Of a DNA stretch of 4,149 nt, positions 1 through 4,149 are shown one piece after another (position 1 is the first letter of the stretch; each line of letters starts with the position of its first letter). The DNA is taken from the IMG/VR virus record IMGVR_UViG_3300029517_000099; one strand, written 5' to 3'. This stretch comes from a virus. Taxonomy: Duplodnaviria; Heunggongvirae; Uroviricota; Caudoviricetes. Made by a program: the position numbers and the translations under genes. The notes under the pieces are model-generated. The model did no database searches. It worked only from the letters and a program-made list of their open reading frames with translations, and was not told the DNA's origin.

Positions 1-176
1 AATCAGCGAGTCAGCTTGGGAAGAAATGACCTGCTTATTCGCACCTTCCCTAATAAAATGTATTTCTCTGATATTATGTTTATTTGTATTAGCTCAGACT
101 TGACATCACAGGTTTCGTATATAGAACATCATCAAATCTGTCAGTTTGCTATGAATGAGATATAGTAATTGAAGAG

Positions 177-1210: not shown

Positions 1211-1323
1211 ACAGCGAATCAGATCAAATAAAACGCACATTTGTTAACATTTACACAAAGTCTGCGCGGGATATTCTGAAAGAATATCCATAATGTGGAG
1301 AGAATCTATTGAAGTGCATGGTG

Positions 1324-1414
1324 CCGGGTGCCTCCCGGTGAACAAAATGTTCGTGATACCTGTCGGCGACAGAAAAGGTTAATGGTATCACCCCACCGCA
1401 CAGGGGGATTCACC
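1324..1414. other. GC-rich island of nested inverted repeats (candidate structured RNA or protein-binding/recombination site)
   Basis: Within AT-rich non-coding DNA: CCGGG/CCCGG hairpin (1324-1338); outer pair GGTGAA (1337-1342) / TTCACC (1409-1414); inner 8-bp pair GTGATACC (1353-1360) / GGTATCAC (1384-1391) enclosing the palindrome TGTCGgCGACA (1361-1371); CCCC...GGGG hairpin (1391-1406). Confidence 0.3.
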
Positions 1415-1740
1415 ATGCAGGAGTTTTCTTAGCAAACTCACTGCGCGCCCGGCAACTCCCAACCACATAAAATGCGGAGTTTGTGGCATTTATGCATATA
1501 ACTCGCAGGAATTATCTTAAAAAACTGATGTCGATCCGGATTAAAAAGAAGCAGGTCATCATCAGATGACTGGAAAAAAGGAAAACAAAAAATACTCATC
1601 ATACAGTTTTGATTGCAGGGATGAGCCTGCTATGCACAATATGCAGAATATAAGCAAGATAAAAATATGCAGGCATATTATTTCGGATTTTGTTATTAAC
1701 ACAACCTTTTTAATAATCATTTGGCATACAATAAACCAGC

Positions 1741-1768
1741 CCAAAAAGAACCGCCTAAACAGGCGGTT
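1741..1768 (-). terminator. Candidate minus-strand intrinsic terminator
   Basis: 8-bp GC-rich stem AACCGCCT / AGGCGGTT with a 4-nt loop (1749-1768); on the minus strand it is followed by CTTTTTGG (plus 1741-1748). No T-tract on the plus strand, so it is unidirectional. Confidence 0.4.
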
Positions 1769-2022: not shown

Positions 2023-2031
2023 TGTTATAAT
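2023..2031 (+). promoter_or_regulatory. Extended -10 promoter (TGtTATAAT) on the plus strand, convergent with Q
   Basis: TG at 2023-2024 and a perfect TATAAT at 2026-2031 with an A-rich tract upstream (1987-1999). The -35 is poor (CCGAAA), but extended -10 promoters tolerate that. Confidence 0.4.
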
Positions 2032-2037
2032 TTGGAG

Positions 2038-2113
2038 CAGAAAGACCAGTTGCCCAACTAGCAGCATTCTCCCCTGCTTTCCTGACGTAAAAAAACCGCA
2101 TTAAGCGGTTTTT
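2038..2113 (+). ncRNA. Candidate ~75-nt small RNA running from the extended -10 promoter to the bidirectional terminator
   Basis: Predicted start about 7 nt after the -10; transcript contains a short internal hairpin (AGCAG...CTGCT, 2060-2078) and ends in the terminator hairpin plus U-tract. It would be antisense to the leader of the minus-strand late transcript. Purely sequence-based. Confidence 0.2.
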
Positions 2114-2118
2114 TTACG
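2086..2118. terminator. Bidirectional rho-independent terminator (tR'-like)
   Basis: Perfect inverted repeat CGTAAAAAAACCGC / ATTAA loop / GCGGTTTTTTTACG. The GC core stem is flanked by a 7-A tract on one side and a 7-T tract on the other, giving a U-tract on either strand. Confidence 0.75.
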
Positions 2119-2195: not shown

Positions 2196-2738
2196 TCAAG
2201 CCATTTTCTCAGCAAATGATTCACGCATGGGAATATATAGGGCATACTCAGCAACAGCTAACCAATTAGCAATCCGTTTTTCGCATGTGCTAAAACACCA
2301 CTCTGGGTGTGCATCATTTAGCAATTCAGCCATTTTGCGCTTAGTCATCCCCCGCCCTTCATAGCGTTGCCGGAGAATGCAAATCAATCCTGGATGCTCT
2401 GCCAGCACCTCACTTATGACTCGATCAATACATAACGCCTCTGCATCAGTACAATGCGCCAGCCAGCTCTTTTGCTTGCCGTTGATCATCTCTCGCAAAA
2501 ACGCTTCCAGCTCAGCTTTCTCTATTCCCGCTTTTTTCATTCTGCGCAGGGCTTCATTGATGGCTGTTTTCGTCAATTTTTTGGATGCCAACAACTGATT
2601 GAACATATTTCCTGACCTGCCACCGCCAATATACGACCAGCGCCCCCACATACGCAGTTTGCCCTGAATCCAGACACTTTCCAGCGTGGCGAGACGAAGG
2701 TGTTCTCCGCTTTTTCCTGTATTCGTTGGGTAAATCAC
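2196..2738 (-). CDS. Late-gene antitermination protein Q-like (P22 gp23 / Phage_antitermQ family), about 180 aa from a GTG start
   Basis: Strong RBS AAGGAGGG 7 nt upstream of GTG at 2738, which overlaps the TGA stop of the upstream gene (GTGA). Translation carries a WGxW motif (LRMWGRWSY) and a Y-x-G-x-GMT-x3-MA segment recalled from P22 gene 23-type antiterminators. Position is immediately upstream of a short spacer plus intrinsic terminator, the canonical Q-pR'-tR' arrangement. The track's ATG at 2858 would overlap the preceding gene by 124 nt and lacks an RBS, so GTG is preferred. Confidence 0.7.
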   Translation of the reverse strand: MIYPTNTGKSGEHLRLATLESVWIQGKLRMWGRWSYIGGGRSGNMFNQLLASKKLTKTAINEALRRMKKAGIEKAELEAFLREMINGKQKSWLAHCTDAEALCIDRVISEVLAEHPGLICILRQRYEGRGMTKRKMAELLNDAHPEWCFSTCEKRIANWLAVAEYALYIPMRESFAEKMA

Positions 2739-3025
2739 AAATATCCCTCCTTTCTCCAGATTTCTTGTGTGCGAAAAACACCTTCTGCATGCATCAGGCG
2801 TAATTCTTCTTTGGTGTAATCGCTGGTTTTTACCCGCCCGTCGATTAGATCGTGGCATGAGCTACAGGCAATCGCCGCCTGCATATCGTGTGGTTTTGTC
2901 GCTGTTCCGCACGTTCCCGCCAGTCGGTAATGCGCCAGCACAGACGTTTCCGGATCGTGATTGCAGTAGCCAGGAATTCTGACGGCGCACATCTGCCCCC
3001 GCGCCGCTTTACGTAAATCCACCAT
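2735..3025 (-). CDS. DUF1364 / YbcO-like Cys/His-rich phage protein, putative Zn-binding nuclease (96 aa)
   Basis: 96-aa ORF beginning MVDLRKAARG with conserved Cys/His positions (CAVRIPGYC, ACSSCHD) closely matching my recollection of E. coli DLP12 YbcO; start coupled to the upstream stop and its TGA stop overlaps the downstream GTG start. Confidence 0.8.
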   Translation of the reverse strand: MVDLRKAARGQMCAVRIPGYCNHDPETSVLAHYRLAGTCGTATKPHDMQAAIACSSCHDLIDGRVKTSDYTKEELRLMHAEGVFRTQEIWRKEGYL

Positions 3026-3624
3026 TACGCAAACTCCAGCAGCTGCGCGGCCACATTTTCGACTTGTTCCGGAGAGGAAAATTTACGGAACAGAATCCAG
3101 TTCCACAGCACATTCAGAACAGATTTATAAACCTGCTGAAACTCGGTTTCATCCATATTCGCAAAAGCGATGGATTTCGCCCGACGCCCATGGCTACCGT
3201 CCGGATAAAAATGTTCGGTGTAAAATCCAGCCTGAATGGTTACCCACTCGCGAAAAGCCTCAAACGACTTTAGCAATGCCGTATCCCGGGTTCTGCGTGT
3301 CGCAACTGTATTCAGATATTGCTCTGCGGCCTCACTCAGGGCTGGCGTGTGTTCCCGACCAACTGATTCGCACAGGTAATCAACGAAACCAGACAGCAGT
3401 TCTCGTTCGCGAGGCGTGATCGCCCCACCGACCGGAGTCCAGTAATCGAATCCCAGTTGCAGGAGTTTGAAAAAACGCTTGTGGAATGCGTAGTTACGCA
3501 CACGCTTAAAATCTGCGTGTATCCACTCACCTATTTTGATTTGATGCAGAAAATCGCAACTCTCCGGCGTCGCCGGGAGAAGTAAACCAGAAGAAGTTTG
3601 TTTGACCAGTTGTATATGCGCCAT
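3025..3624 (-). CDS. Phage nin-region protein, DUF1367-like (199 aa)
   Basis: Intact 199-codon ORF with ATG start at 3624 and weak GAGA-type RBS; its TAA stop overlaps the ATG of the next gene (TAATG at 3023-3027), indicating translational coupling; sequence resembles proteins found upstream of Q in lambdoid prophages. Family name is from recall, not a search. Confidence 0.75.
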   Translation of the reverse strand: MAHIQLVKQTSSGLLLPATPESCDFLHQIKIGEWIHADFKRVRNYAFHKRFFKLLQLGFDYWTPVGGAITPRERELLSGFVDYLCESVGREHTPALSEAAEQYLNTVATRRTRDTALLKSFEAFREWVTIQAGFYTEHFYPDGSHGRRAKSIAFANMDETEFQQVYKSVLNVLWNWILFRKFSSPEQVENVAAQLLEFA

Positions 3625-3682
3625 TTCTCAATCTCTCGATGGCGCAGTGCAGCAGATGCCAGTTGTTCAGGCTGACGTATAA

Positions 3683-3985: not shown

Positions 3986-4149
3986 AAATATTTACAGATG
4001 AAGTAAACCCGCCAATCAGGTTAACTGTGGCTGCGTTGAGGATGCATAATACATCAGAGGTTGCGGGGATTTCTCCCATAAGCGCTAACTTAAGGGTTGA
4101 ACCATCTGAAGAATGCGACGCCTCGGTGCCTCGTTAAGACGATGCCTCG

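Follow-up and report, generated by a model that had tools for sequence, protein, structure and literature searches.

A late-strand composite of two prophage modules as the likely source of an apparent promoter–terminator cassette downstream of a DUF1133-family Q gene in Escherichia coli

Bidirectional terminators of E. coli consist of a GC-rich hairpin located between an A-tract and a T-tract, and can stop convergent transcription on both strands. Among short RNAs encoded next to phage antiterminator genes, IsrK of Salmonella Gifsy-1 has been experimentally characterized as a terminated transcript located directly downstream of antQ, whose read-through gives a longer mRNA (PMC4825925). In the case of StxS and lambda 6S RNA, a constitutive late promoter (PR') located right after Q is followed within about 75-200 nt by a terminator (tR') that is overridden by Q-modified polymerase, and short PR' transcripts such as StxS are known as a general by-product of Q antitermination (PMC7547250). 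On the other hand, OOP RNA (77 nt) and aQ RNA are cis-antisense RNAs of lambdoid phages (PMC12197685); both form conserved units, whose promoters have been mapped and whose targets are known (cII and Q).

The DNA analyzed here (hereafter the window, i.e. the whole stretch of 4,149 nt from IMG/VR record IMGVR_UViG_3300029517_000099) is a piece of a Rac-like lambdoid E. coli prophage. At least 80% of the window was present in 437 of 5,426 complete E. coli genomes (e.g. strain SE11), the window type, with the junction described below, being found in about 8% of them. Since these carriers were almost identical (at least 99% identity in 431 of 506 matches), their number is uninformative about selection on any putative RNA. 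The coordinates of the main features are given in Table 1. Besides PF06576, the Q protein showed a marginal match to PF06530 (Phage_antitermQ), and the gene is also annotated as Q in SE11 and in phage 683R6. Downstream of Q, a late leader of approximately 1 kb without conserved ORFs is followed by the lipoprotein genes and, in SE11, by the essD-rrrD-Rz lysis cassette; based on this order of Q, lipoprotein and lysis genes on the minus strand, the minus strand is the late strand. The TolA-domain lipoprotein genes, situated between the late leader and the lysis cassette and present in phage mEp460 too, look like moron-type prophage cargo.

Table 1. Features of the window and their coordinates.
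Feature	Position	Strand	Basis
DUF1367	3025-3624	minus	
YbcO/DUF1364	2735-3025	minus	
Q antiterminator gene, DUF1133 family, 180 aa	2196-2738	minus	PF06576, E = 4.5e-107
Putative late promoter PR'	2171-2199	minus	Predicted: -35 TTGATT (2199-2194), 17-nt spacer, -10 TTCAAT (2176-2171)
Predicted short PR' transcript, ~75 nt	2089-2164	minus	Leader hairpin GCUUCGC...GCGAGGC and tR'; fold z = -4.74
tR', intrinsic terminator of the late promoter	2086-2118	minus (Q strand) for the conserved function	Palindrome and relatives
Hypothetical antisense RNA, ~78 nt	2038-2115	plus	Fold; no comparative support
Junction of two modules: Q/PR'/tR' (from 2036 upward) and downstream late leader (up to 2035)	2035-2036		Comparison with L193
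Helix 5 of the late-strand element	2006-2033	minus	5' arm 2033-2024 AAAUUAUAAC, loop 2023-2016 AGAGACCA, 3' arm 2015-2006 GUUAUAGUUU
3' end of the late-strand element	1988-2005	minus	Closing-stem 3' strand CGGUGCU (2005-1999), GUG, U8 run (1995-1988); terminator-like
Two tandem lipoprotein genes, TolA C-terminal domain	723-1151, 177-572	minus	PF06519, E = 6e-22 and 1e-14

A first-pass annotation had proposed that a plus-strand extended -10 promoter and a shared bidirectional terminator, in an interval 78-173 nt downstream of the Q stop codon, define a candidate prophage sRNA antisense to the late leader. The individual sequence features and their late-leader context were upheld by the present analysis, while an evolved prophage sRNA gene was not. 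In agreement with the annotation, the terminator hairpin is a perfect palindrome (CGTAAAAAAACCGC-ATTAA-GCGGTTTTTTTACG), with 14-nt arms that are 100% complementary, a 5-nt loop and A7/T7 tracts; as the T-run is absorbed into the stem, this hairpin was missed by the consensus scan. Reading from Q along its own strand, it is the first terminator encountered. The putative PR' has a -35 that overlaps the Q stop codon, and aligns with the mapped isrK promoter region; from the sequence we infer this promoter location and a start site near 2164.

In order to place this unit among its relatives, 33 distinct sequences from downstream of related Q genes were compared, all containing the pattern TTCAAT-N6-12-GCTTCGCANAGCT and originating from E. 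coli, Shigella, Salmonella, Citrobacter, Pantoea and IMG/VR contigs. They had in common a -35 (TTGATT or TTGCNN), a 17-nt spacer, the -10 TTCAAT (a hexamer that belonged to the search pattern itself) and the leader hairpin GCTTCGC...GCGAGGC. The PR' core was conserved across the 33 sequences despite differing downstream modules, and at least eight unrelated terminator hairpins followed the constant core and leader. In the window, the leader hairpin (GCTTCGC-N10-GCGAGGC) lies at 2120-2164 on the minus strand; both this hairpin and TTGATT-17-TTCAAT were nearly invariant, the terminator alone being swapped among types. The PR' core and leader are probably where Q proteins of the DUF1133 family load and where polymerase pauses, and an un-annotated PR'/tR' unit of this family, at a position corresponding to that of IsrK, is thereby delineated. 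Nearly all terminator variants had a U-tract on the Q strand, whereas the opposite-strand tract was perfect only in two types, that of the window and of locus L193 (strain 2020N21-246-1) and the unrelated type of locus L067, and was degraded elsewhere (e.g. GGGTTCTTTCAGG in FORC_028). The window hairpin shares the layout of bidirectional terminators, but its relatives conserve only the Q-strand U-tract. Joint conservation of a convergent promoter and an opposite-strand T-tract was not found among them. In L193 the palindrome is perfect although the -10-like motif is located ~620 nt away, and the L067 type has a perfect palindrome, yet the covariance model described below finds no copy of the adjacent element near its tR'. 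Judging from its sequence, tR' could also terminate transcription on the plus strand; based on these comparisons, its symmetry looks incidental, rather than selected for a convergent partner. Symmetric terminators can suggest convergent genes.

The minus-strand unit resembles IsrK as a predicted short terminated Q-strand transcript right after a DUF1133-type Q, and the IsrK model (RF01394) aligns end to end with window positions 2162-2089 (minus strand; 21.6 bits, gathering threshold 50). The same model scored 20.1 bits at 2034-2115 of the plus strand, both scores being driven by the terminator. The minus-strand unit is not a member of RF01394, and differs from IsrK in its promoter and leader sequences, which are of another type, and in that no C4-like RNA, orf45 or anrP follows in the window. 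The likeness applies to the minus-strand unit; the proposed plus-strand RNA is not encoded on the strand expected for IsrK. True IsrK (67-76 bits) was found at the same post-Q position, on the Q strand, in loci L008 and L011, and the Q genes of the IsrK-bearing Gifsy-like loci were 84-88% identical to that of the window. In these two loci a C4 antisense-RNA match follows immediately after IsrK (L008:3588-3776 and L011:3588-3768, plus strand), c4-a1b1 was also detected in L008, and the region downstream of Q resembles the P1 immI (c4/ant) module. Regarding StxS and lambda 6S RNA, the likeness lies in the arrangement of a putative late promoter and a terminator behind Q and, for StxS, in transcript size (74 nt vs. 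~75 nt predicted for the window), whereas the Q of the window belongs to the DUF1133 family, there is no sequence similarity, and promoter, start site and Q dependence are predictions for the window.

Related copies (69-79% identity) of the sequence at and below 2035 were found behind tRNA-Gly genes in prophages of strains A10, UMNK88, AST20 and O166:H15, whose Q proteins are unrelated. The best-conserved stretch reads GAAAyyATAACTGGyCTCyGTTATArTTyG, ATAAC-N8-GTTAT being invariant. Folded as late-strand RNA, these sequences give a three-way junction built from a closing stem of 7 bp, a short hairpin (3 bp, U-rich loop), a bipartite hairpin and the 10-bp helix 5; a G/U-rich sequence and a U-run come directly afterwards, and the whole element measures about 95-120 nt. 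In many lambdoid prophages this element is situated in the late leader, immediately on the 3' side of tRNA-Gly. Intact copies are located at L113:2613-2730 (-), L002:3415-3536 (-), L080:4052-4174 (+) and L193:3054-3172 (-); in phage 683R6 the copy at 3415-3536 is adjacent to a tRNA-Gly gene (3556-3627). In a six-sequence alignment, 98.3% of the cells were paired and three pairs showed compensatory double changes. A G·U pair was present in 19 cells, the opposite strand thus pairing only 151 of 172 cells; since these wobbles fit the late strand only, the structure is one of late-strand RNA.

A covariance model (R1), built here from the element alignment and not an Rfam family, detected diverged copies in many further loci, all of them on the late strand and adjoining tRNA-Gly wherever tRNA positions were known. 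Over 16 distinct sequences, 95.2% of the cells were paired and 15 of 29 pairs showed compensatory changes, counts that are inflated by the fitting of this alignment to the structure of the model; the margin was nonetheless large, as none of 500 shuffles reached the observed pairing percentage, number of compensatory pairs or covariation score, and slid controls remained below 50% paired. Helix 5 in particular kept 94% of its cells paired, with compensatory changes in 7 of its 10 pairs, and its diverged arms, which read for example GGCUAUGAUU/GGUGUAGCC, kept their complementarity. A conserved GAGRCC motif is present in its loop. No Rfam family matched the three-way-junction element. The element is probably a terminator or a stable 3' structure behind a phage tRNA cluster, although it may also be an sRNA. 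A reading of the intact element as a tRNA or pseudo-tRNA was discarded: ARAGORN finds none in L193, RefSeq has none at the L113 element, and the helix lengths do not fit. This un-annotated, covarying RNA behind phage tRNA-Gly genes, whose intact form lies outside the window, is the more interesting object, and may merit a study of its own.

The window itself gave a hit of 44.1 bits to model R1, covering helix 5, the closing-stem 3' strand and the U-run, while only 5 nt stand in for the 35 model positions of helices 3-4, and helix 2 is missing. The window copy is truncated and holds the 3' third of the element (1988-2033), with helix 5 as its only intact helix. Structure on the minus strand of window segment 2088-1975 was not above that of shuffles (z = -0.54), and is visible only in intact copies; a possible residual closing stem (GGCAaCUG/CGGUGCU) gives a model-like fold of -10.7 kcal/mol, vs. 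-16.0 kcal/mol for the minimum free energy fold. The origin of this copy was apparent from L193, which carries the same prophage with the same Q and PR', an identical tR' palindrome and the full element. After ...AACTGGTCTTTCTGCT, L193 contains ~560 nt of extra DNA, comprising unique sequence, a tRNA-Thr/Gly remnant and the 5' two thirds of the element, and then rejoins the window sequence at ...CCAAATTATAAC, so that the SE11/window type matches only positions 1-179 and 740-801 of the L193 late strand. The four bases that follow the junction, TGCT, are common to FORC_028 and L193 and absent from the window. Each module was found without the other elsewhere. Homology to FORC_028-type prophages ends at 2036, and homology to the 683R6-group phages at 2137, within the leader. 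The full, undeleted form was present in 3 E. coli genomes, vs. about 440 with the short junction form. Because a truncated copy of the element must be secondary, it follows that a deletion, or an equivalent illegitimate recombination, gave rise to the window type. A perfect 9-bp inverted repeat (AACTGGTCT/AGACCAGTT; 2013-2021 and 2043-2051) straddles the junction, one arm being the helix 5 loop and the other Q-module sequence that FORC_028 and L193 carry too; the complementarity may be due to chance or may have had a part in the rearrangement.

Against this background, the extended -10 motif can be evaluated. It reads TGTTATAAT at 2023-2031 of the plus strand, as the first-pass annotation stated. 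The pattern TGNTATAAT was found once in the window vs. 0.23 times expected, and 42 of 200 window shuffles contained at least one match; the significance of the motif is modest, and alone it is not above chance. No usable -35 was found upstream (CCGAAA at 2003-2008, 3/6 consensus matches), and because of this poor -35 the consensus promoter scan did not list the motif. Moreover, the motif lies inside two inverted repeats not mentioned previously, namely 2006-2015/2024-2033 and the 9-bp repeat described above. Viewed from the minus strand, TGTTATAAT is the complement of the helix 5 5' arm (AUUAUAAC) plus the first loop base. Conservation of the -10 element in homologous regions, set beforehand as a check, was largely lacking: a perfect TGnTATAAT occurred only in the window/L193 type and in the L005 lineage, it was degraded in two further lineages to CG+TATAAT (UMNK88 type, TG lost) and TG+TATAGT (AST20 type), and seven diverged versions of the element showed at most 5/6 hexamer matches and no TG. 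Helix 5 pairing was retained in the diverged copies that had lost the motif. What is conserved is therefore pairing on the late strand, not a promoter on the plus strand, and the -10-like motif would simply be a by-product of an A/U-rich stem. Textbook -10 elements can be mimicked in this way by A/U-rich hairpin arms, and comparison across mosaic prophages settles such cases. As TGnTATAAT does not depend on a -35, the motif may still initiate transcription incidentally, and any RNA thus produced would stop at the symmetric hairpin; we place the chance of a detectable plus-strand transcript, by our own estimate and not by computation, somewhere between even and one in three.

Taken together, we consider it likely, on comparative sequence grounds, that the interval is a composite of two late-strand features brought together by a ~560-nt deletion or an equivalent recombination, and that it holds no evolved plus-strand sRNA gene. 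As the terminator belongs to the late-gene switch and the "promoter" is a hairpin arm, such a gene is unlikely, and nothing in the comparison indicates that plus-strand transcription was selected. Several observations weigh against the composite: a perfect TGnTATAAT strongly determines promoter activity even where a -35 is lacking, it is accompanied by an A8 tract (about -43 to -50), A2 and T6 of the hexamer are retained in each of the three closest lineages, as TATAAT or TATAGT, and the terminator is, by its sequence, fully competent on the plus strand. The predominance of the short junction form is compatible with an advantage, though there is no evidence for one, and the composite also draws on an alignment fitted to a model structure and on a predicted PR' and start site. 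The rival reading, that a sigma-70 extended -10 promoter drives a ~78-nt RNA that stops at the plus-strand face of the palindromic terminator and regulates, in cis as an antisense RNA or in trans, either the late transcripts that read through or the downstream lipoprotein genes, and that this RNA is a young gene born from the junction, seems unlikely to us. Several parts of it were borne out. The RNA from 2038 to 2118 folds, as claimed, into an internal 5-bp hairpin (AGCAG/CUGCU) plus the terminator (-25.2 kcal/mol, z = -5.55, dominated by the terminator), it would be convergent with Q, and, as the terminator is the first after Q, an RNA starting near 2038 would be complementary to the initial stretch that late transcripts acquire on read-through. 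A perfect motif, a symmetric A7/T7 terminator 55 nt downstream, a predicted 3' end with a GC hairpin and U7 typical of Hfq-type sRNAs, the occurrence of the junction form in about 8% of complete E. coli genomes, and the existence of lambdoid cis-antisense RNAs near regulatory genes (OOP and aQ; PMC12197685) speak in its favor. If it held, the RNA would share with OOP and aQ an own promoter, convergence with a regulatory gene or operon, an intrinsic terminator and perfect complementarity; in contrast to them, the window -10 is not conserved, the unit was assembled by the junction event, and the RNA would not overlap Q. An OOP-like promoter–terminator unit conserved across relatives was not found, the unit occurring only in the junction variant. 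That a -10 and a shared terminator define an sRNA gene was also not supported, given the separate origin of the two, since the junction falls between the "-10" and the predicted start at 2038 and promoter and RNA body come from different modules, and given the limited conservation of the motif and of the plus-strand terminator. In the other settings of the motif-bearing module (the T1/T2 loci and L193) the motif faces a tRNA-Gly gene or its remnant, with no evident plus-strand terminator, while the palindrome also occurs far from the motif (L193) or with no element copy found near tR' (L067). The motif is no more frequent than chance would give and has no -35, helix 5 pairing accounts for it, and the near identity of the carriers leaves no selection signal. 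For the plus-strand candidate, a whole-window scan at E <= 1 gave no Rfam family, only the sub-threshold, terminator-driven isrK match. BLAST of 1960-2140 and of 1800-2036 against a phage GenBank collection gave no match, for which reason the comparison was based on E. coli genomes and IMG/VR and GTDB loci, and no published TSS or RNA data were found for the locus. It is quite improbable, in our view, that the ~560-nt loss created a promoter–terminator cassette de novo, and with it, in about 8% of sequenced E. coli, a young ~78-nt RNA perfectly antisense to the start of late transcripts that escape tR'; if true, leaky expression of late, lipoprotein or lysis genes in lysogens could be reduced by the RNA, which would then exemplify the birth of an sRNA by rearrangement.

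Two further readings dispense with an sRNA. The inverted repeat TATAAC-N8-GUUAUA (2006-2033) might be a DNA operator through which a dimeric regulator, of phage or host origin, controls late-leader transcription, with neither RNA hairpin nor promoter. An invariant ATAAC-N8-GTTAT at fixed spacing in five loci from three lineages, together with the fairly conserved GAGRCC in the spacer, would agree with this reading; the diverged arms, however, are wholly changed and still complementary (GGCUAUGAUU/GGUGUAGCC), the mismatches form G·U pairs solely on the late strand, and the hairpin sits within a larger covarying three-way junction ending in a U-run. Covariation and the strand asymmetry of G·U pairs led us to discard the operator, which we regard as very improbable. 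It is extremely improbable that the plus-strand face of the terminator serves to end a longer transcript of a moron gene (ORF 1566-1802, 78 aa), the -10 motif being then irrelevant. The ORF is present, and a similarly placed one is annotated in strain A10, but it has no Pfam hit, the homologous A10 DNA has frame-breaking indels, the two ORFs are not colinear, and the window ORF runs through a conserved minus-strand terminator (1749-1768; stem kept, loop variable). On these grounds it was rejected as a convergent gene in need of a terminator.

Under the composite explanation, PR' would fire constitutively in the lysogen and polymerase would stop at tR', producing the ~75-nt RNA. After induction, Q would load at the conserved promoter–leader region, and the modified polymerase would pass tR' as well as the element relic, terminators such as 1768-1749 and the STnc100-family RNA (1448-1262), reading through the ~1-kb late leader into the two TolA-like lipoprotein genes and the lysis cassette. 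The loss of ~560 nt, which removed the tRNA remnant and all but the 3' third of the element, would have placed helix 5 at 55 nt from tR', giving the appearance of a promoter–terminator cassette. As first proposed, the locus would have added one more prophage antisense RNA; the evidence points instead to an ordinary Q-dependent leader and terminator beside a relic.

Additional features were observed in the late leader and at the ends of the window. The STnc100 member located in the late leader (1262-1448, minus strand; 85.5 bits, E = 4.8e-18) precedes the first TolA-like gene, and STnc100 has been related to the prophage sRNA PasD in a 2026 preprint (10.64898/2026.05.13.724894). The terminator at 1749-1768 (minus strand) is strong (AACCGCC-loop-GGCGGTT plus a T-run) and one of several in the ~1-kb leader; it is kept in strain A10 with the same stems and an altered loop. 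Homology to the prophage begins at position 50 in most genomes, while window positions 1-49 matched unrelated phage and plasmid records (98-100%) and terminate in ...CTTATTCGCACCTTCC, which we take to be an IS5-family terminal repeat; ISKpn26/IS5-like elements are annotated near this match in some genomes. At the right end, matches stop at 4077 or 4099 in many genomes, a few extend to 4149, and in SE11 an IS3-family element follows the end of the window, indicating another mosaic or insertion boundary (4077-4149).
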